This document shows, one piece after another, positions 3,067 through 27,253 of a stretch of 32,000 bases of DNA (its first letter is position 1; every line of letters starts with the position of its first letter). The notes beneath the pieces were generated by a model, which was not told where the DNA came from, did no database searches, and saw nothing but the letters and a program-made list of their open reading frames with translations. The DNA is from Mycolicibacterium smegmatis. GTDB taxonomy: Bacteria; Actinomycetota; Actinomycetes; Mycobacteriales; Mycobacteriaceae. A program made the translations under genes and the position numbers. The stretch is from assembly GCF_001457595.1 (NCBI RefSeq), contig NZ_LN831039.1:4500001-4532000 (forward strand), given 5' to 3'.

Positions 3067-3137
3067 TGCTCGGATCCTTTCGTAGATCACCTGCGCTGCC
3101 GCCCAGGCATGTAGAAGGTCGAGCCTGGCTCCGAGGA

Positions 3138-3179
3138 GGGTTAGCTGTCGTCACCCCGCGGGGTCAACCACCCGGGTGA
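3138..3179 (-). promoter_or_regulatory. composite element copy A, sense for SDR1-msrB-msrA
   Basis: Minus strand reads TCACCCGGGTGG-TTGACCCCGCG-GGGTGA-CGACAGC-TAACCC. It lies 71 nt upstream of the GTG at 3066. Confidence 0.7.
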
Positions 3180-3202: not shown

Positions 3203-3244
3203 TCACCCGGGTGAGGAACCGCTGTGGGCGATGACTGTTCACCC
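3203..3244 (+). promoter_or_regulatory. composite element copy A', sense for the cupin-to-MFS operon
   Basis: Plus strand reads TCACCCGGGTGA-GGAACCGCTGT-GGGCGA-TGACTGT-TCACCC. It lies 58 nt upstream of the GTG at 3303 and is back-to-back with copy A. Confidence 0.7.
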
Positions 3245-3302
3245 GCCGCTGGTGAAGGCTGCTCGTCAAGACACCCGAATGAGAGGGAACGAAAGGGCAG
3301 CC

Positions 3303-3737: not shown

Positions 3738-3749
3738 GGCGGAGGGTCT

Positions 3750-6799: not shown

Positions 6800-7195
6800 A
6801 TGACAACCACCAGCACCAGGATCCACACCGGGGTCGGCGCCCACATCGCCACTGGATACGCCGATGCGATCGCCGTACCCAGCGCTGGCACAACGATTTA
6901 CGTGTCTGGGACTCCCGGGTTGCGTGAAGACGGCACCACGCCCGAGGACTTCACCGAGGAAGCCCGGCAGTGCTGGGCCAATGTCGAGGCCGCGCTCACC
7001 AAGGCGGGTGCCGCCCTCACCGACATCGTCTACATGCGGCAATGGCTCACGAGCCGCGACAACGTGTCGGCGTACATGGCGGTGAGCGGAGACGTCATTC
7101 GTCATCAACCCGCGGCCATGCTCACCATCGTCACCGGCCTGGTGTGGCCCAGCATCCACGTCGAGGTCGAAGTCGTCGCAGTCCTGCCGGCATGA
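6800..7195 (+). CDS. RidA/YjgF/L-PSP family protein
   Basis: ATG preceded by GAGGAG. 131 aa with ...IYVSGTPGLREDGT...EARQCWANVEAALTKAGAALTDIV...VEVEVVAVLPA, typical of the RidA fold. Confidence 0.85.
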   Translation: MTTTSTRIHTGVGAHIATGYADAIAVPSAGTTIYVSGTPGLREDGTTPEDFTEEARQCWANVEAALTKAGAALTDIVYMRQWLTSRDNVSAYMAVSGDVIRHQPAAMLTIVTGLVWPSIHVEVEVVAVLPA

Positions 7196-7593
7196 GTGAC
7201 CATCCTGTCATCGACCTGTCGGTCGACGAACTGCTCACCACGACACGTTCTGTACGCAGGCGTCTCGATCTCACCCGGCCCGTTCCTCTCGGCCTGATCC
7301 GGGAATGCCTGGAAATCGCGGTGCAGGCGCCGACGTCGGGCAATCTGCAGAACGCCAGCTTCATCGTGGTGACCGACGGCCGACAGCGCCGGGATATCGC
7401 TGACGTGTACCTGAGCACCTGGAACCAGATCGCCGCGTCGCCGTACGCGGTGGCCGACCGGTTCAAGGATGACCCAGTACGAAATCGTCAACAGCGCAGG
7501 GTCTCCGACAGCGCGGCCTACTACACCGGCACAACCTTCCACCGTGCCAAGCGGATCCCGCTCGACGATGTTCTGCACGTCGACCGATGGTGA
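7192..7593 (+). CDS. nitroreductase-family protein, apparently internally deleted (134 aa)
   Basis: ATGA overlap with the ridA stop. The N-terminus LSVDELLTTTRSVRRRLDLTRPVPLGLIRECLEIAVQAPTSGN matches nitroreductase-family N-termini. The extreme C-terminus TFHRAKRIPLDDVLHVDRW matches family C-termini. The roughly 80-90 residues normally in between are absent. Confidence 0.6.
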   Translation: MSDHPVIDLSVDELLTTTRSVRRRLDLTRPVPLGLIRECLEIAVQAPTSGNLQNASFIVVTDGRQRRDIADVYLSTWNQIAASPYAVADRFKDDPVRNRQQRRVSDSAAYYTGTTFHRAKRIPLDDVLHVDRW

Positions 7594-9035
7594 GTTTGCG
7601 CAGCGTGGCACCGACCCACCGTGCGATGGTGGTCGCGGTGACGGTGTCGATGGTCGCGTTCCTGGACTCCACGGTGATCAATTTGGCCCTGACAGCCATC
7701 GAACATGACCTGGGCGGCGGACTTCCGCTGCAGCAGTGGATCGTCGACGGCTACCTGTTGACCATGGCAGCCGCGATCCTGCCAGGAGGATCGATCTCGG
7801 ACCTGTTCGGACGTGTCCCGGTGATGCGGTTCGGGCTGGTGGTCTTCGGGGCCGGATCGGTTCTGGGTGCCGTGGCCGCCTCGGCAGAAGTGCTCATCGC
7901 CGCGCGGCTCATCCAGGGTCTCGGCGCGGCGTTCCTGGTGCCCGGCTCGCTGGCACTGATCAACACGGTCTTCGACAAAGCACACCAGTCTGCGGCGATC
8001 GGTGTGTGGACCGCGTGGACGGGAACCGCATTCGCGCTGGGCCCGCTGCTGGGCGGCCTGTGCGTCGACCTGCTCGGCTGGCGTTGGGTTTTTGTGCTGT
8101 CGGCGATCCCGATGGCTGCCGGGTACGCGTTGACGTTTTGGCTGTGCCCGGTGTCGGGGCACGTCGTGGGTGCCCGCGTCGACGTCGTCGGGGTCGTTCT
8201 GTCGTCGGTGGGACTGGCCGCGACCGTCTTCGCATTGATCGAGTCGCAACGGAGAGGCTGGGCCGACCTGGTCGTCGCCACGCCAGCGGTCCTGGGAGTC
8301 GTCGCGCTGTCCGGTTTCGTGGGCCGGCAGCGGCGCAGCACGCAACCGTTGCTTCCGTTGTCACTGTTCACGGTTCGCAATTTCACCGCAGTCAACCTGG
8401 TGACGGTGTTCGTCTACGGCGCGTTGACGCTGGGCTCGCTGACTGTCGTTCTCTACGCCCAGGAAATCGGCGGATACTCGGCCACCGCCGCAGGACTGGC
8501 CACGCTACCGATTCCGGTCATGTCGTTCATCCTCGCCCGCCGCGTCGGCCGTATCGCCGCGCGGACGGGACCTCGCATGTTCTTGATCGCCGGTCCCGCC
8601 CTGTCGGGTCTCGGGATGGCGCTGGTCCGTTTGAAGGACAATGGATTCCACGCCACGACGGATCTGTTGCCCGGTATGGTTGTCTTGGCGCTCGGCCTCG
8701 TCCTCACGGTCACGCCGCTGACCTCGATGGCTTTGGCGTCGGTTCCGACCGAGCACAGTGGTTTGGCCTCCGCAGTCAACAACGCCGCCGCTCGACTGGC
8801 GGCGCTGGTATCCGTAGGCTCGATGGGGATGATCACCGTCGGCTCGACCGCTGCCGGTTTCGTCAACCTCTTGAAGGTCAGCGCCGCGCTGTTCGTCCTG
8901 GGATCGTTGTGTGCCGCAGTGTGGATATCCGATTCCCTCGGGGGATACGGACCTGTGCCCTGCGACCTCGCGGCATCGTGCCGCGACCGGCCCGGTGTCC
9001 AGCCGGCACTGGCCGAACAGTCACCTCCGCAGTGA
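7587..9035 (+). CDS. MFS transporter, DHA2 (EmrB/QacA-like, 14-TMS) drug:H+ antiporter type
   Basis: 482 aa and highly hydrophobic. LDSTVINLALTAIEHDLGG and GGSISDLFGRVPVM motifs. The start overlaps the upstream stop. Confidence 0.9.
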   Translation: MVSLRSVAPTHRAMVVAVTVSMVAFLDSTVINLALTAIEHDLGGGLPLQQWIVDGYLLTMAAAILPGGSISDLFGRVPVMRFGLVVFGAGSVLGAVAASAEVLIAARLIQGLGAAFLVPGSLALINTVFDKAHQSAAIGVWTAWTGTAFALGPLLGGLCVDLLGWRWVFVLSAIPMAAGYALTFWLCPVSGHVVGARVDVVGVVLSSVGLAATVFALIESQRRGWADLVVATPAVLGVVALSGFVGRQRRSTQPLLPLSLFTVRNFTAVNLVTVFVYGALTLGSLTVVLYAQEIGGYSATAAGLATLPIPVMSFILARRVGRIAARTGPRMFLIAGPALSGLGMALVRLKDNGFHATTDLLPGMVVLALGLVLTVTPLTSMALASVPTEHSGLASAVNNAAARLAALVSVGSMGMITVGSTAAGFVNLLKVSAALFVLGSLCAAVWISDSLGGYGPVPCDLAASCRDRPGVQPALAEQSPPQ

Positions 9036-9812
9036 CGGCAGGCTACCGTCGGCGAGGTACTTCTTCTGGACATGTGCGTCGATCCAATCGGCGTAGCGAG
9101 TCGAGAAGATCGTGGCGTCTGGATTGGGCGCGAGGGTGTGATCGTCGATCACCGCGCCGAAGTACGGTGCACCGGGATCGGTCACGACCCGGCGCTGATC
9201 TCCCCGGGCCGCAAGACCGGTACGGACGAAGTCGTCCATGCCGATGACTTCCGGCCCAGCGATCTCGACCACCCCGTTGGCAGGCTGACCGAGTGCAGCA
9301 CGAGCGACGGCTGTGGCGACATCATCGGCCGCGATGGGACGGAACGAGGCATGCGGCAACCTGACAACATCGCCGTCGGTCGCGGAATCGGCCAATCCGA
9401 CCGCAAATTCGTAGAAGGGTGTGGCCCGCACGATGGTGTACGGCCGGCCGGAATCCCTGATCAGGTTCTCCTGGGCCGCCTTCGCGGTGTTGTAGCCGCT
9501 GTCCGGCATGCTCTGCGCACCCACCACCGACAGCACGACGTGATGGGAGACGCCTGCCTGCCACTCGGCCGAGAGCAGGTTCGCGGTGGTGGTGACGAAG
9601 AACCGCATCACCGGGTCGTCGTCGAACACCGGTGAACCGGACACGTCGACCACGACATCCGCGCCCGCGACCGCGGCGGCGAGGCCTTCCCCGGTGAGTG
9701 CGTCGACACCTGAGCGACGGGATGCGGCGGTGACGTCGTGGCCCTGCGCACCGAGCTTCGCCGCCACTTTGGCGCCGATCAGGCCACGACCGCCGATGAC
9801 CACGATCTTCAT
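9021..9812 (-). CDS. NAD(P)H-binding, NmrA-like atypical SDR
   Basis: MKIVVIGGRGLIGAKVAAKL N-terminal Rossmann motif, 263 aa. It converges on and overlaps the MFS gene end by 15 nt. Confidence 0.85.
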   Translation of the reverse strand: MKIVVIGGRGLIGAKVAAKLGAQGHDVTAASRRSGVDALTGEGLAAAVAGADVVVDVSGSPVFDDDPVMRFFVTTTANLLSAEWQAGVSHHVVLSVVGAQSMPDSGYNTAKAAQENLIRDSGRPYTIVRATPFYEFAVGLADSATDGDVVRLPHASFRPIAADDVATAVARAALGQPANGVVEIAGPEVIGMDDFVRTGLAARGDQRRVVTDPGAPYFGAVIDDHTLAPNPDATIFSTRYADWIDAHVQKKYLADGSLPSLRR

Positions 9813-9841
9813 GAGAGTCCTTTCACAACCGGTCGAATCAG

Positions 9842-10279
9842 TCAGAGGATTCGCCAGTCGTCGTCGGCCACGATGTGCATGGCCGATTCCTCGGCTGACG
9901 CGGCGCCGCCGTCGATACCGACGTCGTAGGCGCGGTAATCGGAAGTGGAATCAGTCGGGTCGATCTCGAAGGCGAGAAGCCGGCCCGCGCGGGCATCGCC
10001 GACCTGATTGTCGATGGGTTCGCCATCGCTGTCGACGCTGTCACCGATGCCGTCGCCGTCCCAGCGGTCGGTCGTGTCTGGCACCTCGCGGGCCAGACGG
10101 CGCGTCAGACTCTCATGCATACGCGCCTCACGCTCCGTGAGCCCCCACGCACCCAGTTCTCGCGGGCTTTCCGGAGGTGAATAGCCTTCGTCCAGACCGA
10201 TACCGGTCTGCTCGGAGTCCAGGCTCTCCTCAGGTTCGAGGAGATGGCTCGAGACGTCGTCGAATTCAGAAATACCCAT
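9842..10279 (-). CDS. small highly acidic protein (DUF5709-like, assignment from memory)
   Basis: The ATG at 10279 is preceded by GAAACGGAGA. 145 aa rich in D/E, with ...GLDEGYSPPESPRELGAWGLTEREARMHESLTRRLAREVPD... The part of the ORF upstream of this ATG overlaps element B. Confidence 0.6.
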   Translation of the reverse strand: MGISEFDDVSSHLLEPEESLDSEQTGIGLDEGYSPPESPRELGAWGLTEREARMHESLTRRLAREVPDTTDRWDGDGIGDSVDSDGEPIDNQVGDARAGRLLAFEIDPTDSTSDYRAYDVGIDGGAASAEESAMHIVADDDWRIL

Positions 10280-10351
10280 CGGTGCGGTCTCCGTTTCTTC
10301 TCGCGGTGTGACCGCGCAGAGCGATTGCTGTTTCGAGCATGGGGCGCATGA

Positions 10352-10392
10352 AGGCGAGTTGTCATCACCCTGTGCGCGATTCACCCGGGTGA
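10352..10392 (-). promoter_or_regulatory. composite element copy B, sense for acidic protein / NmrA-like genes
   Basis: Minus strand reads TCACCCGGGTGA-ATCGCGCACA-GGGTGA-TGACAAC-TCGCCT. The spacer is 1 nt shorter than in the other copies. It lies 72 nt upstream of the ATG at 10279. Confidence 0.7.
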
Positions 10393-10407
10393 GCGAATCA
10401 GATGGAG

Positions 10408-10815
10408 TCAGACGTCCACCACGGCCTGCAGAATGTCGAACTCACCGAAAAGCGTTCGGCCACATGAGGGACAGTGAACGACACGCCGCAACAGTCGGTG
10501 CACCCTGGTCGGCGTCATCTTGGCCATGATGCGCCGCGCGGCGTTCTCCAACGCATCGCGGTGATCAGCGCAGACGAAACCACAAGCATTGCCGTACTCG
10601 TCACAGTCGAAGCGCCGGCAATCTCCGACGACATGAAACTCCACGTACGCCACCGCGGTTCTTTCGCAACGAAGCCCTGATTTCGGACATCCCAGCTCGC
10701 ATTGCGTCGCAATGTCGCTGTGCCCGATGACGTCACGGAGGATGTCCGATCGGTTGCCCGGCACGGTCCCGTCGGATATCGGGCCCGGCTCCGGAGATCC
10801 GGTGTTGAAATGCAT
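10408..10815 (-). CDS. cysteine-rich hypothetical protein (9 Cys, C-terminal HCPSC)
   Basis: The ATG at 10815 is preceded by GAAGGGGAAG. The longer ORF-track start (10893) lies inside element C. No confident family assignment. Confidence 0.5.
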   Translation of the reverse strand: MHFNTGSPEPGPISDGTVPGNRSDILRDVIGHSDIATQCELGCPKSGLRCERTAVAYVEFHVVGDCRRFDCDEYGNACGFVCADHRDALENAARRIMAKMTPTRVHRLLRRVVHCPSCGRTLFGEFDILQAVVDV

Positions 10816-10876
10816 CCACTTCCCCTTCGAGTTCGCTGACCGGACGATGCGGTGTGTCACAGACTTCATTCGGGCA

Positions 10877-10918
10877 GGGCGAACGGTCATCACCCTGACC
10901 TTCCGTTCACCCGGGTGA
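10877..10918 (-). promoter_or_regulatory. composite element copy C, sense for the Cys-rich gene
   Basis: Minus strand reads TCACCCGGGTGA-ACGGAAGGTCA-GGGTGA-TGACCGT-TCGCCC. It lies 61 nt upstream of the ATG at 10815. Confidence 0.7.
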
Positions 10919-10953
10919 TCAGAGCGAAGTTTGCGCTGAGGCGGTGCCTTTGC

Positions 10954-13233
10954 TCAGAGCAAGCCGAGTTCACGACCGCGGGCAACCGCCGAATTGCGGT
11001 TGTCGACGCCCAGTTTGCGGTAGATGGCCCGCTGGTGGGTCTTCACAGTATTGAGCGAGACGTAGAGTCGCTGACCGATGTCGCGGCGCGACAGCCGGGT
11101 GGCCAACAAACGAAGAACCTCAAGTTCTTTCGATGTCAGGTCCTCGGCGATGTGTTCGTCGTTGTACGCCGCGACCGCCACTCGGCGTCCCTGCCCGGCC
11201 GATCCGATCATGGGGTGCACCGCGACGTTGTCCGGACACCGGCGAAGCAGCGCACCTGCCTCGCTGCGACTTTTCTCGGCCGCTTCCAGATCTCCGAAGT
11301 CGTTCAGTATCTTCGCCCTCACCATCAAGGCCTTTGCGACCTCGAGGATTCCCGCGCCCTTGCGGGCCAGGCCGACCGCCAGATGAGCCGCGTCCGCGGC
11401 AGCGGCCCATTCACCGCTGGCGTACAGGACGACCGACACCGCCAACGACACTGCGACATCGATGAAATTCTGAGTGCCGGCCGGATCGGGGCCCACGCCC
11501 GTTGCCCGGCGAATCAGATGCTCGGCGTCAGCGAGCTGACCGGATTCGGCCTCGATCAGCGCGAGATAACCCAGCGCATACACACGATGGCGTCGGTCCC
11601 CTGTCCTCTCTGTCAGCTCTACGGCACGCTGCAGTTCCGTGCGGGCCTCGTCGATGTCGCCCGAGAAGTACAGGGCGGCCCCGTAGGTGACATGGGCCGC
11701 GGACCGAGCCGGCGGTGCCTCGCCGAATTCAAGGGTGGCCGCTTGGCGGGCCGCGTCGAGCGCATTCGTGACGTCACCAATTTTGAACGCGTAGACCTCA
11801 CGGAGCGCGACCAACTGCTCGGACAGGCCGGCTCGTGCAGAACCCTCGGCGGCCGATACTCCCTCGAGCCCGGCTGCGACCGCTTCGATCCATATCCGCG
11901 CATCGTCGAAAAGGCCGACGTTCAACGCGACCCACGCACGGATGGCACTGAGCCGTGGATCGCCCCTGACGGTGCCCTCGGGCAGAAGGTCGAGCCAGCC
12001 CGACACGGTCGACAGTCCACCGCCGGCCAGTTCGTTGGCCCAGTCCTCGACGATGAGGTCCGCGCTCTCGGCGATGTCTCCGGCGGCCACGAGGTGACGC
12101 AGCGCCTCGTCGACGAGACCCTCGGCCTCGAACCACTTCGCGGCTCGGCGGTGCAGCCCGGGCACGAGTTCGGGTTCGCAACGGTGCAACTCCGCACGCA
12201 GAAGCTCACCGAACAGGTGGTGATATCGATACCAGTGCCGTGACATGTCCAGCGGCACCAGGAAGAGATTTTCGCGCTCCATCTCCTCCAGCACCGATAC
12301 CGAGTCGGAAGACTGCAACACCGCGTCGCACAGCGCACCGTTGAACCGTCGCATCACCGAAGTACGCAGGAGGAAATTGCGAATCCGCGGTGACTGGCGG
12401 TCGAGCACCTCGGCCATAAGGTAATCGACGATATGGCGGTTGTCGCCTGCGAACGTCCTGATGAAGGCCGCTGCCTGCGCGCGCCCGGCGAGCGAGAGTG
12501 CGGCAAGGTAGAGACCTGCGGCCCACCCTTCCGTTCGCCGGTGCAACAGCCGGACATCCTCCTCGGTCAGGTCCAACCCCAGGACATCGTTGAGCAGCTG
12601 ACCGGCCTCGCCGACCCCGAAACGTAGATCGTCGCTGCGCATTTCGACGAGCTCACCGTTGGCACGTAGCCGAGCCAACGGCAGGAGCGGATCTGACCTG
12701 GTGGCCAGAACGACGTGCAGGTTCGCCGGCATCCTGCCGACGGCAAACGCCACCTGCTCGTGGATCGCGCGATTCACCACCATGTGGTAGTCGTCGAGAA
12801 TCAGCACGATCGGACGTGCGACCGCGTCCAGATCGTTCAGCAGGGTGGGCAGGACAACCTGAATCGGATCGGCACCCATGGTCAACAGTTCGACAGCGCG
12901 GGTACCCACACCCGGGCTGATCTTCTGCAGTGCCGCGATGACGTACATCCAGAACCACACGGGGTCGTTGTCGGATGCATCGAGTGACAGCCAGCCGAAT
13001 CGCTGGTCCTTGCCTGCACCCAGCGCCCATTGGGAAAGCAACGTGGTCTTGCCCCATCCCACAGGTGCACTCAGCAGGATCAGCCTGGACCGGCAGCTTT
13101 GCGACAGTGCATCAAGCAGGGCGGTGCGGTGAACGAGCTGACCGGCGATGGCCGGGATGTGCAATTTGGTGGCGAGCAGAACTGCGCGTTCCGTGTCACC
13201 ATGTCCCGCTGCGGGTCCCTCTGAGGCGTCCAT
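10954..13233 (-). CDS. large ATP-binding LuxR-family (LAL / MalT-like STAND) transcriptional regulator 1
   Basis: N-terminal LLATKLHIP... plus P-loop LLSAPVGWGKTTLL. Long helical/TPR-like middle region. C-terminal LuxR HTH LTSKELEVLRLLATRLSRRDIGQRLYVSLNTVKTHQRAIYRKLGV. The ATG at 13233 has GGAG upstream. In-frame alternative starts lie at 13383, 13449 and 13575. Confidence 0.85.
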   Translation of the reverse strand: MDASEGPAAGHGDTERAVLLATKLHIPAIAGQLVHRTALLDALSQSCRSRLILLSAPVGWGKTTLLSQWALGAGKDQRFGWLSLDASDNDPVWFWMYVIAALQKISPGVGTRAVELLTMGADPIQVVLPTLLNDLDAVARPIVLILDDYHMVVNRAIHEQVAFAVGRMPANLHVVLATRSDPLLPLARLRANGELVEMRSDDLRFGVGEAGQLLNDVLGLDLTEEDVRLLHRRTEGWAAGLYLAALSLAGRAQAAAFIRTFAGDNRHIVDYLMAEVLDRQSPRIRNFLLRTSVMRRFNGALCDAVLQSSDSVSVLEEMERENLFLVPLDMSRHWYRYHHLFGELLRAELHRCEPELVPGLHRRAAKWFEAEGLVDEALRHLVAAGDIAESADLIVEDWANELAGGGLSTVSGWLDLLPEGTVRGDPRLSAIRAWVALNVGLFDDARIWIEAVAAGLEGVSAAEGSARAGLSEQLVALREVYAFKIGDVTNALDAARQAATLEFGEAPPARSAAHVTYGAALYFSGDIDEARTELQRAVELTERTGDRRHRVYALGYLALIEAESGQLADAEHLIRRATGVGPDPAGTQNFIDVAVSLAVSVVLYASGEWAAAADAAHLAVGLARKGAGILEVAKALMVRAKILNDFGDLEAAEKSRSEAGALLRRCPDNVAVHPMIGSAGQGRRVAVAAYNDEHIAEDLTSKELEVLRLLATRLSRRDIGQRLYVSLNTVKTHQRAIYRKLGVDNRNSAVARGRELGLL

Positions 13234-13445
13234 GTCCGAACTCCACGAATTGAATGAATCCAACGTCAAGGTAGGAATATTCGGCCTTGACGAGTACTGG
13301 GTGAGCGCCCTTTGCCCGACTTTCCAGAGACTTTCTGCCGGGGCGCCGTGGCGCGTTGTCCGCGATGCTCGCGGTGCAGTCATTGAAACAGACGAATCCT
13401 GCGTGATTTCTGGCGGCTCGTACGGGCGGCGCTTGGTGGGCGCGC

Positions 13446-13532
13446 TCATGGCCGTCTGGACACCAGGATGTAGCCGCCGAAGCCGATCACCACCGGCACC
13501 ATCGCCAGCATTCCCAAAAATGTGCTGATCAT
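13446..13532 (-). CDS. candidate 28-aa hydrophobic small protein / upstream ORF
   Basis: TGAGGAAG precedes ATG; the ORF reads MISTFLGMLAMVPVVIGFGGYILVSRRP-stop. Third-codon positions are mostly G/C. Its TGA overlaps (ATGA) the in-frame ATG at 13449 of the LAL1 reading frame. It is too short to appear in the ORF track. Confidence 0.35.
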   Translation of the reverse strand: MISTFLGMLAMVPVVIGFGGYILVSRRP

Positions 13533-13746
13533 CTTCCTCAAACCTTTTGTATCGCTGGCGCGTTGGCCTCCTCAACCCATGACACCGCTGCGCACAGATG
13601 GTGAGCGCATCTGCCCATCATCGTTTTCAGCTCCGGGTCGTTGCGCTCCGCGGCTGGATCTCGGGTCGAGCGTCGACGGTTGCAGCGATTCAGAACTCGA
13701 TAATTTCTCTGATGACCACGTTCGCAGCCCCGGGCCGTCGCCACCA

Positions 13747-13761
13747 TCACCCGGGGGGTGA
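13747..13761. promoter_or_regulatory. variant of the palindrome with an expanded centre (TCACCC-GGG-GGGTGA)
   Basis: TCACCCGGGGGGTGA lies between the two LAL genes. The downstream GGGTGA-YGACNNY-TCRYCC module is not found at the canonical spacing on either strand. Confidence 0.4.
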
Positions 13762-13811
13762 TCTTTAGTGCGTCTTCGGCGTATGCCTAGTCGACACGAG
13801 CCGGATATGAG

Positions 13812-16643
13812 TTAATCAGCGCGGTGAATGAACTGCGCCAGTTGAGCCCGCGAAGTGACGCCGAGTTTGGCGAACGCGTTACGGACGTGCGTCTTCACCG
13901 TGTGCGGGGAAAGCTGCAGATGCTCTGCCACGGCCCGGTTGGTCGCGCCCTCGGCGATCAACTGCACGACCGTGAGTTCGGAATCGGTGAGACTGTCCCA
14001 GCCCGTTTTCGCACGTTGGGTTGCCACGACCCGCCGTTCCGCCCCCAGACGACGCAGCGCGCGGCCGACTCGGCGGGCATCAGCTGTCGCTCCGCACTCG
14101 CTGTAGGCGTCGAATGCCGTGTTGAGCTGGTCGAGCGCCTCGGTACCGCGTTGTGCGCGAATCAGTTCGGCGCCGGCATCTGCGGCCGCGCCGGCGTACA
14201 GAAGCGGCCGCGGGAATGCGCGAAGCGATTCCGCAGCACGCACCAGCGCGTCGGCGTCGTGCTCGAGAATGCCGCGGGAATACCCGACCACCGCCCTGAA
14301 CAGCGGCACCGCGGGCCGCTCACGACCGAGCACCTCGGCAGCCTGCAACACCCGCGCACGCAGACCCGCATCACCGGCGGCTGATGCCACCTGCGCGGCC
14401 AGGATCAGCCGGACCAACGCGTGCGGGAAAAGAGGTGTCCCCAGTAGGTTGATGTCGCCGAGCCAGCGCGCTGCCTCGTGGATGTCACCGCGATACCACG
14501 CCGCACGCGCGAGGACGTACGCGCAGGCTCGGCGCTGGCCGGGCGGACCGGTGCAGTGAGCATCGTGCGCATCGTTTGCCGTCTCCAGCAACAGGTTCCG
14601 GTCATCGGAGTGTGCCGCCACCTCGGCAAGGATCAGCATGCGGTGTACGTCCAGTTCCTGCGCGCCGGACGCCTGCGGAGGTGGCAGTGACTCAGCTGCG
14701 CCACGAGCGGCCGACAGGCGGCCCGCCGCGAGATGGACCCATCCGGCGTAGACGGCCCAGTTGTCGAGGACCATCGCGCTGCGTTCCCGGTCGGCTTGCG
14801 CGATGCCCTCGGCGGCCCGGTTCGTCGCGTCGTCCAGTCTTCCGACCACGGCCAGCATGTTTGCGTGGAACATCCCGGCATAGGCATGTGCCAGCGCCGT
14901 TTCATTCGTGTAGGCGATTCCACGAAGCTGTTCGAGGCGGCGCAACGCGCGGACCGCGTAACCCTCACCAGAATCGAGCAGGGCATGGGTGACCTCGGCC
15001 ATGATGATGGCCTCCGGATCACCGGTGGACGCGGCCGCGGCGGCAGCTTCGTCGGCTGCGGTACGTGACTGCGCGTCCTCGTCCTGCAATACCAGGTTGT
15101 AGGCCAGGGATGCCAGATGCCGGGCGCGGGTGAGCTCGCTGATGCCTCTCAATCTCAGCGCTCGGCGGCTCTCCGCCACCCGTTGCGGCGAGCTGTGCTT
15201 GGTCTGCGTCGGTAGCCGCAGCCGGATCTCGGCCTCCACCTCGGGCGACGCCGCATCCGCGAGCGCCATGTCGGCCAGCTCTTCGGCTTCACCGTAGCGG
15301 CTGGCCCGGTTGAGCCAACCCACCGTTTCCGCAATCAGGGATCCGTGTTCGGCGTCGTCGGCTGGCGACAGTTCCAACGCACACCTGCTCAGATCCGCGG
15401 CGGCGCCCGCATCTCCGCGGCCGACTGCCTGCGCGGCTTCTCGCAGTGCGTCGATCGCCTCCCGGTCACCCGGCTCGGCGCTGCGGGCCAGCTGGGTGGC
15501 GACCTCGGCAGGCGCAGCACCCATCCCGAGCATGACCGACGCCGATTGGCGTTCCATCGCCCGCCGCAACGACTTCGGCAACGACTGCCTGGTGGCCTCG
15601 CGCAGGAGATCGTGCCGGAATCTCAACTGTTCACCGTCTTCGATGAAAAGATCTGCGTGCACGGCCTCTTCGAGCGACGACAGCAACGACGTCGGCGATC
15701 GTTCGAGCATCGCGGCCAGCAAGCCCGCGGTGAAGCGGTCCGGCAGTACCGCTGCCACCCGGACCACCTCTGAGGCGCCCTCGGAGAGCAGATCGAGCCG
15801 TTGGTGCATGCTGGCACCGAGACGCCGTGGCAGAGCAAAACCCGAGGCCACCGCACGGCCATCGGAGAGGCCGAGCCGTCCCTCCTCGCCGAGACCGCGG
15901 ACGAGCTCGCTGATCAGGAACGGATTGCCGTGCGCCTTGGCAGCCAGACTCAGCAACGAGGTGTCGGCCCGTGCCCGCACCGCGTCCTGAACCATGTCGG
16001 CAACCGCATCCGGCGTCATCGCCGCCAGTCGCAGGAACGTGGCATCGGTTCGCTGCAACACCGACAACGTCTCCTGCACCGCCTGTCCCCCAGCCCCGGT
16101 GCGGGCCGTGAACACCCACAACACCGGCACATCGATCTCTGTGGTCAGCGACCGCAGCGCCAGCAACGTCGCGTTGTCAGCCCAATGAATGTCTTCGAGC
16201 ACGATCATCAGAGGCGTCTGGGCGGCGGCCGCACGGATCGCGTTGTGCAGATCGTGCACCACCCAGTAGCGCAGGTCTGCCGAGCCACCCAGTTCGCGCA
16301 GCGCCGCCACGTCGCCGATCGGGGGATCGGCGCGCAACGTGGCCATGAACAGCGAGAAGAACGGCACCGTCTGCTGATACTCGAACGCTTCCCCGAACAA
16401 CGTGCGAACCCCGCACTTGTCGGCCAGCCCCAACACCTCGGTCAGCAAGCGACTCTTCCCGATGCCCGGGGGCCCCTCGATCACCAGCACGCCGCCGCGC
16501 CCTCGGGCCGCTGCGGTAATCAGTGCACCGGCAGTTTTCAGCTCATCCGCTCGCCCACGAATCGGCGGCGTGATCAGCCGTTCGCCGCCGACGTCGAAAA
16601 AGTCGGTTGAAGGCCCCACCGGGGTGTCCTGTCTACGGTTCAC
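13812..16643 (-). CDS. large ATP-binding LuxR-family (AAA/STAND ATPase - TPR - LuxR HTH) transcriptional regulator 2
   Basis: 943 aa. P-loop VLVIEGPPGIGKSRLL, Walker-B-like LMIVLEDIHWAD, long alanine-rich helical repeats, and C-terminal LTDSELTVVQLIAEGATNRAVAEHLQLSPHTVKTHVRNAFAKLGV. The GTG start at 16643 is approximate. Confidence 0.85.
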   Translation of the reverse strand: MNRRQDTPVGPSTDFFDVGGERLITPPIRGRADELKTAGALITAAARGRGGVLVIEGPPGIGKSRLLTEVLGLADKCGVRTLFGEAFEYQQTVPFFSLFMATLRADPPIGDVAALRELGGSADLRYWVVHDLHNAIRAAAAQTPLMIVLEDIHWADNATLLALRSLTTEIDVPVLWVFTARTGAGGQAVQETLSVLQRTDATFLRLAAMTPDAVADMVQDAVRARADTSLLSLAAKAHGNPFLISELVRGLGEEGRLGLSDGRAVASGFALPRRLGASMHQRLDLLSEGASEVVRVAAVLPDRFTAGLLAAMLERSPTSLLSSLEEAVHADLFIEDGEQLRFRHDLLREATRQSLPKSLRRAMERQSASVMLGMGAAPAEVATQLARSAEPGDREAIDALREAAQAVGRGDAGAAADLSRCALELSPADDAEHGSLIAETVGWLNRASRYGEAEELADMALADAASPEVEAEIRLRLPTQTKHSSPQRVAESRRALRLRGISELTRARHLASLAYNLVLQDEDAQSRTAADEAAAAAASTGDPEAIIMAEVTHALLDSGEGYAVRALRRLEQLRGIAYTNETALAHAYAGMFHANMLAVVGRLDDATNRAAEGIAQADRERSAMVLDNWAVYAGWVHLAAGRLSAARGAAESLPPPQASGAQELDVHRMLILAEVAAHSDDRNLLLETANDAHDAHCTGPPGQRRACAYVLARAAWYRGDIHEAARWLGDINLLGTPLFPHALVRLILAAQVASAAGDAGLRARVLQAAEVLGRERPAVPLFRAVVGYSRGILEHDADALVRAAESLRAFPRPLLYAGAAADAGAELIRAQRGTEALDQLNTAFDAYSECGATADARRVGRALRRLGAERRVVATQRAKTGWDSLTDSELTVVQLIAEGATNRAVAEHLQLSPHTVKTHVRNAFAKLGVTSRAQLAQFIHRAD

Positions 16644-16705
16644 CGGACTGCCACTTCAGTGAGCCAGTCTAGGCCTTTTGATCACCGTCCCGAACACCGC
16701 ACGTG

Positions 16706-16747
16706 TCACCCGGGTGGTCTCGCCGCGGGGATGATGACGGTTCACCC
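16706..16747 (+). promoter_or_regulatory. composite element copy F, sense for ndh-HAD; the palindrome also lies 62 nt upstream of divergent LAL2
   Basis: Plus strand reads TCACCCGGGTGG-TCTCGCCGCGG-GGATGA-TGACGGT-TCACCC. It lies 116 nt upstream of the ndh ATG. Confidence 0.7.
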
Positions 16748-16863
16748 CGTGCGGCGGCAAGCTCAGTCGACGAAACACTGCCGCCCGCGAAGCAACGCCG
16801 TGGCGGACGTCCACGCGTCACCGGGCACCGGGCTCTCCGGCTCGTCGAGATCAAGGAGTTCAT

Positions 16864-18282
16864 ATGCGCCCAGCCAGAATTGTGATCGTCGGTAGCGGAT
16901 TCGCCGGCTTCGAATGCGCACGCCGGCTGAGCAAACAGCTGAAACGGCACCGATCCGAGGCAGTCGTGACCCTCATATCTCCGGTCGACTACCTGCTGTA
17001 CACCCCGCTTCTGCCCGAGGTTGCCGGTGGCGCAACAGATCCACGCTTCGCCACCGTGCCCCTGAACGACAGGCTCCCGGAAGTCCAGTTCATCCGCGCC
17101 TATGTCGATTCGGTGGACTTGTCCGCGCGTTCGCTGCGCTGTCGCGATCAGGAGAACATGTCCCACGAGCTTTCGTGGGATCGCCTCGTCCTGACCCCTG
17201 GCTCGATCAGTCGCCTGTTCGACATCCCCGGACTCGCCGAACATGGACGCGGGCTCAAATCGACGGCGCAGGCGCTTTTTCTGCGCGATCACATCATCGA
17301 ACAGTTCGAACTGGCACGCATCGACGAGGACCGTGAACGCGCGAACGCGCGTAAGACGGTGGTGGTTGTCGGATCTTCATATTCCGGAACGGAACTCATC
17401 GCACAGCTGTGCGCGATGGCTTCGGTGGCGGTGCACGACTTCGGATTCGAGCCCGGCGACGTACGACTGATCCTGGTGGAGCGTTCGGGACGGTTGATGC
17501 CCGAAATCGGGCCTGCGCTGGCAGTTCGCGCCGAACACGTGCTCAAACGGCGCGGCGTACGGTTCCTCACCGGTGTCACACTGTCTCGGGTCGCTGCCGA
17601 CCACGTCATCCTGAGCGACGGAACCCGCATCGGCACCTACACCGTCGCGTGGGTTGCCGGAGTCGTCGCCAGCCCGCTGATCACGGCCACGGGCCTGCCG
17701 ACCGAGAAGGGCAGGCTCAAGGTGGGTCCTGATCTGCAGGTCCCCGGTTTCGACGGCGTCTTCGCAGGCGGCGATGCCGCAGCGGTACCCGATGTCACCA
17801 ATCCCGGGACGATAACGCCGCCGACGGCCCAACACGCCACCAGGCAAGGCAAAATTCTGGCCCGAAACGTCGCCGCAAGCCTCGGCTACGGCAGCGCGCG
17901 CGAGTATCGGCACCGCGATCTCGGGACCGTTGTTGACCTGGGTCCCGGGTTCGCCGTCGCCAATCCTCTCAACATCCCGCTCTCCGGGTTTCTGGCGAAA
18001 CTCGTGACCCGCGCCTACCACCTGTACGCCATTCCGCGTAACGCCAACCGGTGGGCAGTGGCGCTCGGGTATCTCACCAACGTCCTGTTCGGGCGGCCAT
18101 TGGTGTCGATCGGCTTCGCCCAGCCGTCGTGGGCACAGTTTTCCGCGAGCGAGGAGTTCATGACCGCACCCACGGCGACGCAGCCACTCGACGAGCAGAT
18201 GTACACCGACGACCTCCGCTTCCAGGAAGCTTCCGCCGACCGGGCCTCGGCGCCGGGCGATCGGGCCAGAAAGGCAACATGA
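16864..18282 (+). CDS. ndh: type II NADH:quinone oxidoreductase (NDH-2), divergent copy
   Basis: AAGGAG RBS. RIVIVGSGFAG FAD motif, YTPLLPEVAGG, GGDAAAVPD. The second dinucleotide motif is atypical (VVVVGSSYSGTE instead of GxGxxG). Confidence 0.9.
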   Translation: MRPARIVIVGSGFAGFECARRLSKQLKRHRSEAVVTLISPVDYLLYTPLLPEVAGGATDPRFATVPLNDRLPEVQFIRAYVDSVDLSARSLRCRDQENMSHELSWDRLVLTPGSISRLFDIPGLAEHGRGLKSTAQALFLRDHIIEQFELARIDEDRERANARKTVVVVGSSYSGTELIAQLCAMASVAVHDFGFEPGDVRLILVERSGRLMPEIGPALAVRAEHVLKRRGVRFLTGVTLSRVAADHVILSDGTRIGTYTVAWVAGVVASPLITATGLPTEKGRLKVGPDLQVPGFDGVFAGGDAAAVPDVTNPGTITPPTAQHATRQGKILARNVAASLGYGSAREYRHRDLGTVVDLGPGFAVANPLNIPLSGFLAKLVTRAYHLYAIPRNANRWAVALGYLTNVLFGRPLVSIGFAQPSWAQFSASEEFMTAPTATQPLDEQMYTDDLRFQEASADRASAPGDRARKAT

Positions 18283-19091
18283 TCCGCCACTCTCCTCCGA
18301 TCCGACTGCTACTCGCCGACGTCGACGGCACCCTGGTGACGCACGACAAGGTCCTCACGCATCGCACCCTCGCCGCGGTCGCCAAGCTGCGGGAGGCCGG
18401 GATACTGTTCGCCGTCACCAGCGGCCGTCCGCCGCGCGGCATGTCGAAGCTCATCGAACCACTCGGACTGACAACGCCGCTCGCTGCGTTCAACGGCGGG
18501 CTGTTCGTGCGGCCGGATCTGTCGGTCATCGAACGACGCATGATTTCGGATGACGTGACAGCGGCGGTGATCGAGCAACTCGACACCGACGGGCTGACCG
18601 TATGGGTCTACCGGGGCGCGGACTGGCTGGTGCCCGATCCCCATGGGCCTCATGTGGCGCGGGAGGCCCGGACCGTCGGGTTCGGCCCGACACCGATCGA
18701 GAGCTACCCGCCGATCTCACGCGGTGTGTCCAAAATTGTTGGCGTCAGCGATGATCACGACGCGGTACGCAAGGCGGCAGCCCGGTTGCGCGAGCGCTTC
18801 GCAGACCACGTGTCGGCGGCGACATCACAACCGTACTACGTCGACGTCACCCATCCCGACGCGAACAAGGGCGCTGTGGTCTCTTTCTTGTCCGCCGCCT
18901 ACGACATCGCCACGGAGTCGATCGCCACGATCGGCGACATGGCGAACGACGTGGCGATGTTCCGGAAATCGGGGCTCAGCATCGCGATGGGAAACGCCGG
19001 CGACGAGGTCAGACGGGCCGCCCGTTGTGTCACCGCCTCGAACGCAGACGACGGGTTCGCCGACGCCGTCGAGCGGTTCGTCCTGCCGTAG
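18279..19091 (+). CDS. Cof-type HAD-IIB family hydrolase (phosphatase)
   Basis: ATGA overlap with the ndh stop. LLLADVDGTLV (DxDGT), VTSGRP, KG..., and IGDMANDVAMF motifs. Confidence 0.85.
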   Translation: MIRHSPPIRLLLADVDGTLVTHDKVLTHRTLAAVAKLREAGILFAVTSGRPPRGMSKLIEPLGLTTPLAAFNGGLFVRPDLSVIERRMISDDVTAAVIEQLDTDGLTVWVYRGADWLVPDPHGPHVAREARTVGFGPTPIESYPPISRGVSKIVGVSDDHDAVRKAAARLRERFADHVSAATSQPYYVDVTHPDANKGAVVSFLSAAYDIATESIATIGDMANDVAMFRKSGLSIAMGNAGDEVRRAARCVTASNADDGFADAVERFVLP

Positions 19092-19124: not shown

Positions 19125-19760
19125 CTACGACGAATCCAGCTGTTCGTTCTTGATGCCGGCGATGACAGCCGCGTCGGAGGCGACGACCTGGGTGGCGGTA
19201 TGCAGCACCGCACGCACGTCGTCGGCGGGAATGACCGCGGCCCCGGAGGTGTCGGCGAAAATGTAGTCGCCGGGAAAAACCGCCACCCCGCCGATCACGA
19301 CCGGATGGTTCGCCTCGAAGGGGGTGACAGTGTCGCCGCCCCACCGTGTTGTTTCGCCACGACAATAGACAGCCAGGTCGTACTGCTCGAGTTCGGCGAA
19401 ATCGCGCAGCCGACCATCGGCGAGTACGCCGGCGAGCCGGTGGTTTTCGGCACGCGAGAGCTTTGTTCCGCCACCCAACGAGACTTCGGTGAAACCGTTG
19501 CTCGCCAACACCAGAACGCAACCCTCACCGCCGCGCTCGATGGCCTGGTAGAACAACCGCCTGAAGTTGTGACAATCGGGCGGCAGGGCGGCCGAACAGG
19601 CAGGAAAGTAACTGATGGTCACCGCGGGCCCGAAGAGCCGGCGTCCGGGGGTCGGACTCACCAGGTCGAGAAGATGGCAGCGATGCCGATGCAGTCGCCC
19701 CATCGCATCGACGATGTCGGCCGTACGCACCCGGCCGGCGAGCAACTCAAGGGGCTCCAT
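19125..19760 (-). CDS. RraA-family protein (RraA / 4-hydroxy-4-methyl-2-oxoglutarate aldolase-like)
   Basis: [21 protein letters not shown]...GGGTKLSRAENHRLAGVLADGRLRD...VVIGGVAVFPGDYIFADTSGAAVIP. The ATG overlaps the transketolase TGA (TGATG). Confidence 0.8.
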   Translation of the reverse strand: MEPLELLAGRVRTADIVDAMGRLHRHRCHLLDLVSPTPGRRLFGPAVTISYFPACSAALPPDCHNFRRLFYQAIERGGEGCVLVLASNGFTEVSLGGGTKLSRAENHRLAGVLADGRLRDFAELEQYDLAVYCRGETTRWGGDTVTPFEANHPVVIGGVAVFPGDYIFADTSGAAVIPADDVRAVLHTATQVVASDAAVIAGIKNEQLDSS

Positions 19761-21709
19761 CAGGCCGTCAGCGTCTCGTCGTCGTCGGATCGGCCGTCGT
19801 CGGATCGGCCGTCGTCGGATCGGCCGTCGTCGGCCTGCAACAGGTGTCGCGCAGCCTTGTCGATACTTGCCGCGTCTATCGCGGCATCCGCGAGCAGTTC
19901 GGCAGGAGTTCCCGAGCCCGGCATGGCGCGAACGGCCAGGTGCATCAGCTTCAGACGCGGTGTTTCCGCACCCGAGATGGCCTCGAGCACGGCCGAGCCG
20001 AGTCCACCCTCGGGGTGATGGTCCTCGGCGATGACCAATCGTGCACCGGTGTCGCGCACAGCTTCGAGCAGCGTGTCCCGGTCGATCGGCTTGACGGAGT
20101 AGACATCGATGACGCGGGCCGCGATCCCGTCGCGGTGCAGCGATTCGGCGGCGGCCAGGCATTGGTGGACGGTGACACCGGCACCGATCAGGGTGACGTC
20201 GTCGGCGCTGCTGGACCGCAGCGTGTGGGAGCCGCCGATGGTGAACACGGTGGCCGGCTCGTAGAGGACCGGGTAGGCACCACGGGTGGTCCTCAGATAA
20301 CGGACCCCATCGGCATCCGCCATCAGGTCGACCAGCGCGACCGTACTTGTCGCGTCGCTGGGATAGAGGACGGTCGCGCCGTGGACGGACCGCATCATCG
20401 CCAGGTCTTCCAGCGCCATCTGAGAGGGTCCGTCGGCACCGATCTCGACGCCGGCATGGGACCCGATCAGGCAGATGTTCGCCTGTGAGACGGCCGCCAT
20501 GCGGATGAAGTCATGCGCCCGGGTCAAAAACGCGGCAAAGGTCGATGCGAACGGAATGTAGTGGCGGACATGGAGACCGACGGAAGAGGCAACGAGTTGT
20601 TGCTCGGCGATGAACATTTCGAAGTATCGCTCGGGGTGGTGCTCGGTGAACTCTGCGGCGCCGGTGGAGTTGCTGACTTCGCCGTCGAGCGCCACCACCC
20701 GGCGATTGACCGCGCCCAGTGCGGCCACCGCGGCTCCGTATGCCGCCCGGGTGGCGACCTTCTCACCCGGTGCGTAACGCGGCCGGTCCGAGAACCCATC
20801 CGGATTGCCCGCCCCGGGCGCCGACGATTGACCGGAGCGTGACGCCGGTTTCGGTCCCGCGACGGTCAGACCCTCGACCTCGCCGAGCTCGGCCAGTGCG
20901 CGCCGCGCCATTTCGGGCGGGAAAGCCTTGCCATGCCAACCCTCTCGGTCCTCGACTTCGCTGAAACCGCGACCCTTGACGGTTCTCGCGAGGATCACCG
21001 TCGGCTGCGTTGTGTTACGCGCGGCGGTGAGCGCCTGGTCGATGGCCTCCAGGCGATGGCCGTCGACGGAGATCGCCCGCGCACCGAAAGCTTCCACGCG
21101 TTTGGCGTAGGTCTCCAGATCCCAACCGAACTCGGTGGGTCCGCGCTGGCCCAACCGGTTGACATCGACGATGACGGTGAAGTTCGAAAGGCCGTAATAG
21201 CCGGCCTTGTCCAGTGCCTCCCAGACCGACCCCTCGGCCATCTCACTGTCGCCGCACAGCGTCCACACGTGAAATCCAGACCTGTCGAGGAACTTGCCCG
21301 CGAGCGCGACGCCGACCCCGATGGCGATCCCCTGTCCCAGTGAGCCGCTGGCAACGTCGACCCACGGCAACACAGGCGTGGGGTGGCCTTGCAGGCGTGA
21401 GCCGAAGCGGCGGTAGCCGGTCATCAGTTCCGTGTCGGTGATGACACCGACGGCTTTGAACGCGGCGTACAACAGCGGCGAGGCATGCCCTTTGGACAGG
21501 ATGAAGTGGTCGTTGTCAGGGTGATCCGGGCGCTCCCAGTCATAGCTGAGGTGGCGAGCGAGCAGAACCGCCGTCAGATCGGCGGCCGACATGCTCGAAG
21601 TCGGATGTCCGGAGCCGGCGGCAGTGCTGGCTCGGATGGCGTCGGCGCGCAGTTGCCGCGCCAGTCGCCCCACCAGCGTGGTGTCGATGCGATCGTTCGA
21701 TTCATTCAA
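19760..21709 (-). CDS. transketolase-family protein (single-chain, about 650 aa)
   Basis: [41 protein letters not shown] (ThDP GDG-like), and [18 protein letters not shown] motifs. The TTG start at 21709 overlaps the ctaD stop by 8 nt. Confidence 0.85.
19781..19835. repeat. 15-bp perfect tandem repeat, 3 full copies plus a 10-bp partial copy
   Basis: GTCGTCGGATCGGCC occurs three times (19781-19825), followed by GTCGTCGGCC. On the minus strand it encodes (DDGRS)x3 at the C-terminus of the transketolase. It lies 21-75 nt upstream of the RraA-like start. Confidence 0.9.
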
Positions 21710-23453: not shown

Positions 23454-23545
23454 CGGTCCGGTTCTCTCCTGTCCGTCGCACGTGCGACGGTCTTCCACCC
23501 GTCGCCGCGCATGCCCTTGTCGAGACTCGATCCTGGCCCGGTACC

Positions 23546-23587
23546 GGATGAGCTGTCTTCACCCAGCCGCACCGATCACCCGGGTGA
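23546..23587 (-). promoter_or_regulatory. composite element copy D, sense for ctaD-transketolase-rraA
   Basis: Minus strand reads TCACCCGGGTGA-TCGGTGCGGCT-GGGTGA-AGACAGC-TCATCC. It lies 92 nt upstream of the TTG at 23453, and its palindrome end (23587) is 28 nt downstream of the GNAT stop at 23616. Confidence 0.7.
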
Positions 23588-27166: not shown

Positions 27167-27211
27167 GATGCCCTCCGATCGCCATCTGCCGACCAAGCGT
27201 TCACCGGACAG

Positions 27212-27253
27212 GGGTGAGCAGTCATCACCCCGCATGTGAGATCACCCGGGTGA
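27212..27253 (-). promoter_or_regulatory. composite element copy E, sense for the small-ORF/QOR2/cupin2/SDR2/GNAT operon
   Basis: Minus strand reads TCACCCGGGTGA-TCTCACATGCG-GGGTGA-TGACTGC-TCACCC. It lies 45 nt upstream of the ATG at 27166. Confidence 0.7.

Follow-up and report, generated by a model that had tools for sequence, protein, structure and literature searches.

A conserved promoter-like element and its probable MalT-type regulator in a redox gene island of Mycolicibacterium smegmatis

The 32,000-nt stretch of Mycolicibacterium smegmatis DNA analysed here (NZ_LN831039.1, positions 4,500,001 to 4,532,000; in the following the window) raises the question of which protein reads a partly palindromic element of about 58 bp that recurs in front of its operons. 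Two genes for large LuxR-type regulators, LAL1 (10954..13233) and LAL2 (13812..16643), lie head to tail on the minus strand and are ringed by exactly seven full copies of this element. An earlier note on this DNA, made from its letters alone, had named both of them as candidate cognate factors and regarded the link as positional and analogical only. For LAL1 (MSMEG_4430) comparative evidence has now been found in both search directions, starting from the motif as well as from the protein, whereas the proposal for LAL2 (MSMEG_4431; bioRxiv 10.1101/2024.03.06.583649) is not supported as written. From the sequences and from related systems, we consider it probable that the seven elements are activator-dependent promoters read by LAL1. 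If LAL1 drives the seven promoters, one ligand-gated switch would serve about 30 redox, detoxification and respiratory genes, including those for a second type II NADH dehydrogenase and a paralogue of cytochrome oxidase subunit I (CtaD). Such a switch would bear on the remodelling of respiration in mycobacteria, for which M. smegmatis is the standard laboratory model, and on how they cope with oxidants or redox-cycling drugs.

The island corresponds to MSMEG_4419-4444 of M. smegmatis mc2 155, and the 943-aa LAL2 is identical in that strain (CP001663.1, about 4.505-4.528 Mb) and in other strains. Papers in the searchable literature mention the island and both regulators only in tables or in passing, for example through a stop mutation in MSMEG_4427, which encodes a major facilitator superfamily (MFS) pump (PMC11591709). 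A literature text search for the 12-mer TCACCCGGGTGA returned irrelevant matches only, and the search of a plasmid collection gave no match.

The element and its neighbour across genomes

As far as sequence can tell, the element represents a promoter with a fixed direction. It reads, on the strand of the gene that it precedes, TCACCCGGGTGA, N10-11, GGGTGAYGAC, N3, TCACCC, N10, cAnnCT, and all copies share one orientation when read in this way, each pointing at its downstream operon. The distal part is the palindrome TCACCC|GGGTGA, centred near -57, and in total each element contains four GGGTGA-type hexamers, centred near -61, -55, -38 and -25. The proximal hexamer would end 35-36 nt before the predicted start site, and the GAC of the proximal GGGTGAYGAC coincides with the G-A-C positions of a -35 hexamer. 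The fourth hexamer, TCACCC, is located at about -28 to -23; it completes a second inverted pair, GGGTGA-N7-TCACCC, around the -35 region and is followed, after 10 nt, by the weak -10 sequence cAnnCT. The usual first T is missing from this -10, as would be the case in an activator-dependent promoter; a sigma-70 consensus scan of 10200-17000 gave no promoter matches. The predicted start sites leave a sensible 5' untranslated leader at all seven elements; they fall at window 3112-3116 (minus), 3266-3270 (plus), 10326-10330 (minus), 10851-10855 (minus), 16769-16773 (plus), 23520-23524 (minus) and 27186-27190 (minus), and NC_008596 coordinates are obtained by adding 4,499,927. Sites for SigF, extracytoplasmic function (ECF) sigma factors, Rex, CRP, DosR, CsoR/RicR or PhoP were rejected as identities of the element, because their known consensus sequences do not fit TCACCCGGGTGA-N10-GGGTGAYGAC.

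The seven copies named in the earlier note were recovered by a weight matrix trained on other genomes only, which found exactly seven full elements in the window at 45-61 bits, compared to -13 for the best of 20 shuffles. Moreover, the palindromic 12-mer with up to two mismatches occurs 13 times in the window versus 2.85 expected, a number that was reached in 0 of 100 shuffles. A pattern scan with 22 specified bases, covering one genome per species in 185,579 species, revealed at least 120 loci, and the same target genes follow the motif across them. The motif loci listed and the window provided 132 distinct instances, which were aligned on the proximal box. Among these, two parts of the element that had not been included in the search pattern are conserved as well, namely the fourth hexamer TCACCC at +4 to +9 (77-92% per position) and the -10-like hexamer (C/A)AnnCT at +20 to +25, with the A at +21 in 89%, the C in 80% and the T at +25 in 89%. 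In the non-mycobacterial instances the fourth hexamer is mostly kept, and the A...T of the -10 is kept in about 70%. The exact element was also seen in contigs binned as metagenome-assembled genomes of Ruminococcus, Chloroflexi and Melainabacteria (loci L070, L090 and L097). A LAL1-like protein is encoded on the L090 contig as well. Mis-binning of actinobacterial DNA is the probable explanation of these three cases, and not an occurrence outside the Actinomycetota.

Starting from the motif, LAL1 orthologues with 37-70% identity over about 750 aa are often encoded in the same 8-kb motif blocks, in many mycobacteria and also in genome bins of Thermoleophilaceae, Solirubrobacterales, Streptosporangiaceae, Spirillospora and Acidimicrobiales. 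The palindrome lies at most 400 nt, and usually at most 100 nt, past the stop codon of the LAL1-like gene in 20 of 29 testable genome loci, and an element just past this stop codon recurs in many metagenome loci, too. Copy C has the same position in the window: it had been described earlier as lying directly downstream of LAL1, and its palindrome (10907-10918) begins 36 nt past the LAL1 stop codon.

The pairing was also recovered from the protein side. We used 80 metagenome contigs that were chosen only for encoding a LAL1 relative with 33-50% identity, and 29 of them carry the element with at most 4 mismatches in 22 positions, compared to one match in reversed-sequence controls. Altogether 33 near-exact palindromes were found in the 599 kb of these contigs (reversed-sequence control: 0), and 24 of them sit in the 11% of the sequence that flanks LAL1-like genes. 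In addition, two mycobacterial LAL1 orthologues that were looked up have five and two elements within 20 kb. Within the loci compared, co-occurrence of LAL1-like genes with the motif, which had been named earlier as a way to check the link, is hence seen from both ends, and this recurrence of the pairing across distant actinobacteria is the reason why we regard LAL1 as the probable activator.

Furthermore, the recognition helix of the LAL1-like protein and the neighbouring palindrome vary together. Proteins with the helix STVRTQ or STIRSH are accompanied by the palindrome TCCCCTAGGGGA at the same position, those with NTVHSQ by TCACCTAGGTGA and those with STIHSH by TCCCCCGGGGGA. The altered palindromes, which also comprise TTCACCTAGATGAA, are situated just past the LAL1-like stop codon in metagenome loci (L147, L167, L169, L170, L173, L176, L163 and L133). 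As the lineages are few and may be related, this covariation is suggestive, although a neighbouring protein that reads the site would be expected to leave just such a pattern, and the altered helices together with the altered palindromes may represent a recognition code for MalT-type helix-turn-helix (HTH) domains.

LAL1 and the MalT precedents

According to the comparisons made here, LAL1 is a true MalT homologue from end to end. The MalT-family STAND regulator of 759 aa combines a P-loop NOD, WHD_MalT, TPR_MalT and a LuxR/GerE HTH domain, and it is homologous to MalT of E. coli and Klebsiella over NOD, arm and HTH. Pfam assigned PF17874 TPR_MalT (E=6.6e-13, above the cut-off), PF00196 GerE (E=1.9e-12) and, weakly, AAA_16, while PF25873 WHD_MalT is among the precomputed hits for LAL1 and its homologues. 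The identity with E. coli MalT is 31.7% over 555 aa (BLASTP, E=2e-64), and residues 19-422 match the E. coli MalT ATPase module in PDB 8BOB with E=1.4e-60 (phmmer). Residues A56, P57, G59, G61 and K62 are invariant among 12 LAL1 orthologues, and VLILDD represents a Walker B-like motif. The GerE helix aligns with that of E. coli MalT, and the recognition helices are nearly the same, NTVKTHQRAIYRKLGV (NTVKTHQRA) in LAL1 and TTIKTHIRNLYQKLGV (TTIKTHIRN) in E. coli MalT. Nevertheless, LAL1 is a MalT family member by homology and not the functional equivalent of E. coli MalT, because the targets behind the seven elements include no mal gene. Unlike the situation in E. coli, maltose or maltodextrin genes are missing among the targets, hence the inducer is presumably not maltotriose.

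The earlier note had described two large regulators of 759 or more aa and of 943 aa in head-to-tail order, and both open reading frames (ORFs) were confirmed on the minus strand. The longest ORF for LAL1 (10954..13575, minus strand) would give 873 aa from a TTG. The real start is likely the ATG at 13233, which yields the same 759 aa as annotated for MSMEG_4430, a 'MalT-like LuxR family' protein (PMC5705681). This start is preferred because the long form overlaps a conserved micro-ORF in another frame and because of a published start site at window 13390 (minus strand), which is listed as NC_008596 4513317 (-) and assigned to MSMEG_4430 with a 142-nt leader (PMC6448022 supplement). In a yeast two-hybrid assay, gp54 of phage Giles bound residues 567-759 of MSMEG_4430, HTH included (window 10954-11530); according to a section heading of the same paper, this interaction is not required for infection (PMC5705681).

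The MalT box given in the earlier note, with the core GGA(T/G)GA, agrees with its description in PMC7567727. Its likeness to the hexamers of the window, which had been called superficial, was seen again and goes beyond that: the half-site GGGTGA equals the MalT core at five of six positions, copy F even carries GGATGA, the recognition helix is near-identical, and the predicted distance to the start site corresponds. Similar to E. coli MalT promoters, several box-like hexamers occur in direct and inverted order, with the proximal one predicted to replace or overlap the -35; the E. coli malPp promoter has GGATGA, 22 nt and CAAACT, compared to GGGTGA, 23 nt and cAnnCT here. In contrast, E. coli boxes are asymmetric 10-mers, whereas the distal site here is a perfect 12-bp palindrome, and none of the MalK, MalY or Aes-type inhibitors of the E. 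coli system was identified here.

The closest known counterpart of the island is the MalT regulon island of Actinoplanes sp. SE50/110, and by its layout the island would work like one. In Actinoplanes, MalT (ACSP50_3915) activates 40 of the 51 genes in a large, 'maltose-regulated' stretch of the genome (Droste et al., 2020; PMC7567727). The motif TCATCC-N5-GGATGA overlaps there the -35 region of 17 mapped start sites, with 34.4 +/- 1 nt between its 3' end and the start site, and the island contains two MalT-like genes, the more conserved of which encodes the activator, and no mal gene is controlled (PMC7567727). Likewise, the window has a MalT-like STAND-LuxR regulator inside a multi-operon island, in which each operon is placed behind a hexamer-palindrome motif, and about 35 nt separate the end of the proximal half-site from the start site (predicted here, mapped there). 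Two LuxR-type regulators, one more conserved than the other, and a regulon unrelated to maltose genes are further common features. The half-sites are close (TCATCC/GGATGA in Actinoplanes, TCACCC/GGGTGA here), and the placing of seven elements within 24 kb around LAL1/LAL2, each upstream of an operon as also seen in other mycobacteria, follows the Actinoplanes type. However, Actinoplanes has a single palindrome with a 5-nt spacer, unlike the arrangement TCACCCGGGTGA-N10/11-GGGTGA-N7-TCACCC found here, hence the hexamer arrangement differs from both the E. coli and the Actinoplanes precedents. The gene content differs as well, with amino-acid-related and unknown genes in Actinoplanes compared to redox and respiratory enzymes here. 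Furthermore, activation in Actinoplanes is documented by deletion, overexpression and mapped starts, whereas here it is a prediction from sequence.

On the basis of these precedents, LAL1 could act as follows. A ligand would be sensed by the TPR/arm region, as in E. coli and Actinoplanes MalT, and ligand and ATP together would switch LAL1 to an oligomeric form. Its LuxR-type HTH domains would then settle on the GGGTGA hexamers, of which the proximal one would overlap the -35 region, and RNA polymerase would be brought to promoters too weak to fire unaided. In this way, seven operons with about 30 genes would be turned on jointly. The output would include msrB, short-chain and zinc dehydrogenases, disulfide oxidoreductases, a nitroreductase and an MFS exporter, and also the type II NADH dehydrogenase NDH-2, the CtaD paralogue and a small ferredoxin-fold protein. 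LAL2 would represent a lineage-specific accessory.

It must be mentioned that several points weigh against LAL1 as activator of the seven promoters. The start sites are predictions made from the -10-like hexamer. A 12-bp palindrome without spacer is an unusual target for a LuxR-type dimer, and the inverted pair around -32 suits a repressor as well as an activator. For about half of the closest metagenomic LAL1 relatives, no recognisable element is present in the DNA examined, and the covariation of helix and palindrome comes from few, possibly related lineages. Finally, LAL2 could, by its sequence, bind the same hexamer.

If LAL1 indeed acts in the proposed way, the picture based on Actinoplanes would be extended, in that actinobacterial MalT-type STAND regulators govern large regulon islands that have no relation to sugars. 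From mycobacteria to Thermoleophilia the element hardly varies, which makes it a handle for an inducer search with reporter fusions and for the definition of the regulon in many species. A wider proposal can be made only tentatively, and we would rather doubt than defend it at present: the combination of a LAL1-like gene, the element and the gene for a small protein called hyp117 would be an ancient, undescribed circuit of the Actinomycetota, in which a STAND protein of the MalT type responds to a signal other than a sugar, probably to redox, electrophile or quinone stress. As parts of the same tentative proposal, this circuit would have grown in mycobacteria to an island with an alternative NADH dehydrogenase and a cytochrome oxidase subunit, the changes in helix and half-site would amount to a readable DNA-recognition code, and LAL2 and the micro-ORF would form a second regulatory tier.

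LAL2 and other candidate readers of the element

LAL2 (943 aa; a 935-aa form is on record) is composed of an AAA_16 P-loop domain (E=4.6e-18), with the Walker A motif GPPGIGKS at residue 57, and a GerE HTH domain (E=8.6e-17). Pfam reported no TPR family for LAL2 at E<=0.01, though a divergent helical repeat may be present. The label 'P-loop ATPase-TPR-LuxR', which had been given to both regulators, is thus appropriate for LAL1 with its TPR_MalT, while a TPR in LAL2 was not found by Pfam. A PDB search with LAL2 matched HTH domains alone, and its common ground with LAL1 or MalT is restricted to the HTH, about 50 aa in the case of LAL1. The second Actinoplanes regulator is annotated as MalT-like, whereas LAL2 is not MalT-like outside the HTH. 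The LAL pathway regulators of actinomycetes, PikD and GdmRI/RII among them, govern gene clusters for secondary metabolites, and only few of their binding sites are known. LAL2 resembles these proteins in its size above 900 aa, the N-terminal AAA_16 P-loop, the long helical middle part and the C-terminal LuxR HTH, and also in being encoded within the cluster that it presumably controls. Unlike in those systems, the cluster here consists of redox enzymes, and it is the MalT-type LAL1, not the AAA_16-type LAL2, that accompanies the motif as its conserved partner.

It is rather unlikely, but deserves consideration before other alternatives, that LAL2 binds the hexamers itself or is an obligatory partner of LAL1, which would then be a regulon member or co-sensor. 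LAL2 adjoins LAL1 inside the island in M. smegmatis and other mycobacteria, the orthologues listed for it show higher conservation than those of LAL1 (75-83% versus 66-80% identity), and the recognition helix HTVKTHVRN shares the TVKTH core with LAL1. Moreover, LAL2 is usually divergent from, and next to, an element-driven operon. LAL2 orthologues usually accompany LAL1, sometimes as tandem duplicates, and every named one among the 120 LAL2 homologues listed is mycobacterial. In contrast, the non-mycobacterial loci with the identical element contain LAL1-like genes only, and no LAL2 homologue was found in them among the motif loci listed. In Actinoplanes, deletion of the second, less conserved regulator had slight effects only (PMC7567727). 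The position of copy F is of little help for LAL2. Its palindrome (16706-16717, TCACCCGGGTGG) is indeed 62 nt away from the LAL2 GTG at 16643, as reported earlier, and proximity is all that speaks for the autoregulation of LAL2 proposed on this ground. Element F is oriented toward ndh, away from LAL2. Among other mycobacteria, the nearest element is divergent from LAL2, none points at it, and the distance between palindrome and LAL2 start ranges from 63 to 423 nt; the variable distance and the lack of any element facing LAL2 argue against a fixed autoregulatory architecture. We therefore keep LAL1 as the probable reader of the element, with LAL2 as a protein that could act upstream of, or together with, LAL1. 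Two tandem LAL2 paralogues with 72-83% identity to LAL2 were observed beside LAL1 in the mycobacterial loci L025, L078, L098 and L100, and from such sequences the LAL2 lineage appears to duplicate within the island.

Between the two regulators, the earlier note had reported a variant palindrome, and TCACCCGGGGGGTGA, i.e. TCACCC-GGG-GGGTGA, was confirmed at 13747-13761. It has no adjacent proximal box or -10. A role as conserved operator of LAL1 or LAL2 was rejected, since the corresponding spacers in four other mycobacteria (L040, L054, L100 and L042) lack it, and we regard it as an orphan site of doubtful function.

A regulator encoded elsewhere, either a transcription factor or an alternative sigma factor, could also read the element, with the LAL1-like genes as mere neighbours or regulon members; we consider this unlikely. 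The element has its own -35-like and -10-like hexamers, and two genes of the island changed their expression in the microarray analysis of a sigF mutant, in which MSMEG_4424 (RidA, window 6800-7195) was down by -3.48 in log phase and MSMEG_4428 (window 9842-10279) by -3.26 in stationary phase (PMC4694148). For neither of the two genes is a SigF promoter motif given (PMC4694148), hence these data hint at an indirect tie of SigF or oxidative stress to the island. Furthermore, the -10 cAnnCT resembles the housekeeping TAnnnT and not the GGGTA type of SigF. The LAL1-like gene stays adjacent over class-level distances, even where the palindrome sequence changes, the half-site corresponds to the MalT core and the geometry to that of MalT promoters, and no other regulator family recurred among the window proteins that were compared with the motif loci listed.

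The third alternative retains LAL1 as the binding protein and assigns to it the role of a repressor or dual regulator, which would occlude the -35 by binding to GGGTGA-N7-TCACCC near -32. With its two halves the inverted pair encloses the -35-like ATGAC, which is where operators are classically found, and none of the seven predicted start sites appears in the part of the published start-site table (Martini et al., 2019; PMC6448022 supplement) that was examined, which would be consistent with silent promoters. Nevertheless, repression is very unlikely to be the function of LAL1, since the characterised LAL regulators act as activators, as does MalT (PMC7567727), the missing first T of the -10 hexamer fits a promoter that needs an activator, and the proximal hexamer sits where MalT boxes are found in activated promoters.

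That the elements are non-regulatory repeats, such as repetitive extragenic palindromes (REP), miniature inverted-repeat transposable elements (MITE) or terminators, can practically be dismissed, although they are repeated, palindromic and intergenic and copy C follows a stop codon, because, unlike such repeats, all seven face the downstream gene with a sensible 5' untranslated region, have the -10-like hexamer at a fixed distance and are conserved upstream of orthologous genes in many species, and because they contain no T-run or terminator-like stem, with no family matched in an Rfam scan of the whole window and no terminator-like site at any element in a terminator scan of 10200-17000.

The seven operons and further features of the island

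Taken together, the genes that follow the seven elements centre on redox, detoxification and respiration. Element A1 (3122..3179, minus strand; 46.0 bits) is the putative promoter of the operon for a short-chain dehydrogenase/reductase (SDR) and msrB (1884-3090, minus strand), which is preceded by the same element in many species among the motif loci listed. Element A2 (3203..3260, plus strand; 45.0 bits) putatively drives an operon at about 3279-9035 (plus strand) with the order cupin, DoxX, disulfide oxidoreductase, zinc-dependent alcohol dehydrogenase (Zn-ADH), RidA, nitroreductase and MFS. At its longest, the cupin ORF reaches back to 3231, which falls within element A2; with the predicted A2 start site at 3266-3270 (plus strand), the start codon would be the ATG at 3279 or the GTG at 3303, and either of them yields a signal-peptide-like N-terminus, (M)RVLRAFTALTAVLAVAHA. 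Element B (10336..10392, minus strand; 54.7 bits) is the putative promoter of DUF5709 and NmrA-like genes (9021-10279, minus strand), and element C (10861..10918, minus strand; 58.3 bits) that of a gene for a Cys-rich protein of 135 aa (10408-10815, minus strand). The latter protein belongs to no Pfam family, and homologues with 52-59% identity adjoin the motif in other mycobacteria.

On the other side of the regulators, element F (16706..16763, plus strand; 46.4 bits) is the putative promoter of ndh, encoding the type II NADH dehydrogenase, and a gene for a HAD hydrolase (16864-19091, plus strand). Element G (23530..23587, minus strand; 45.9 bits) putatively serves the operon 19125-23453 (minus strand) with the CtaD paralogue, transketolase-like and RraA-like genes. 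The highest-scoring copy, element H (27196..27253, minus strand; 60.8 bits), is the putative promoter of the operon 23616-27166 (minus strand), which comprises the genes for hyp117, Zn-ADH (MSMEG_4442, window 25965-26885; PMC6448022 supplement), cupin, SDR and GNAT. Another mycobacterium has the element in front of thioredoxin reductase and thioredoxin, too, and in front of SDR, msrB and msrA.

The first gene of the H operon, hyp117 (26882-27166, minus strand), probably starts with the ATG at 27166, giving 94 aa, and not at 27235. Homologues of 80-94 aa are encoded by the commonest gene directly behind the element in distant taxa, from mycobacteria to Thermoleophilia. The protein has no Pfam family. 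A moderate AlphaFold2 model (pLDDT 69) predicts the fold beta-alpha-beta-beta-alpha-beta, i.e. a ferredoxin-like fold, and Foldseek searches with it returned generic ACT, HMA and PII-like matches, none at E<=0.001; hence the predicted structure gives a fold class and not a function.

The spacer between LAL2 and LAL1 contains the 28-aa hydrophobic micro-ORF (MISTFLGMLAMVPVVIGFGGYILVSRRP; 13449..13532, minus strand), and the published start site at 13390 falls downstream of it. In tblastn searches it is kept at 60-79% identity in the same spacer of at least eight other mycobacterial loci, some of which hold two to three copies. It has a good Shine-Dalgarno sequence, GAGGAAG, and could encode a small membrane protein or a leader peptide.

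Besides LAL1 and LAL2, the only regulators encoded in the window are a TetR protein (29540-30127) and a MazE-like antitoxin (28956-29165), the same two as reported earlier. TetR was rejected as cognate factor of the element, as it has no homologue in any motif locus listed. Beyond the last element, on the right side, lie its gene, which is divergent from a hydrolase gene, and the MazE/MazF-like toxin-antitoxin pair (28956-29497, plus strand). On the left side, an IS3-family transposase pair (HTH_Tnp_1 and rve; 446-1887, minus strand) is situated just next to msrB. The IS3 transposases on the left and the toxin-antitoxin and TetR/hydrolase genes on the right may represent the boundaries of the island.

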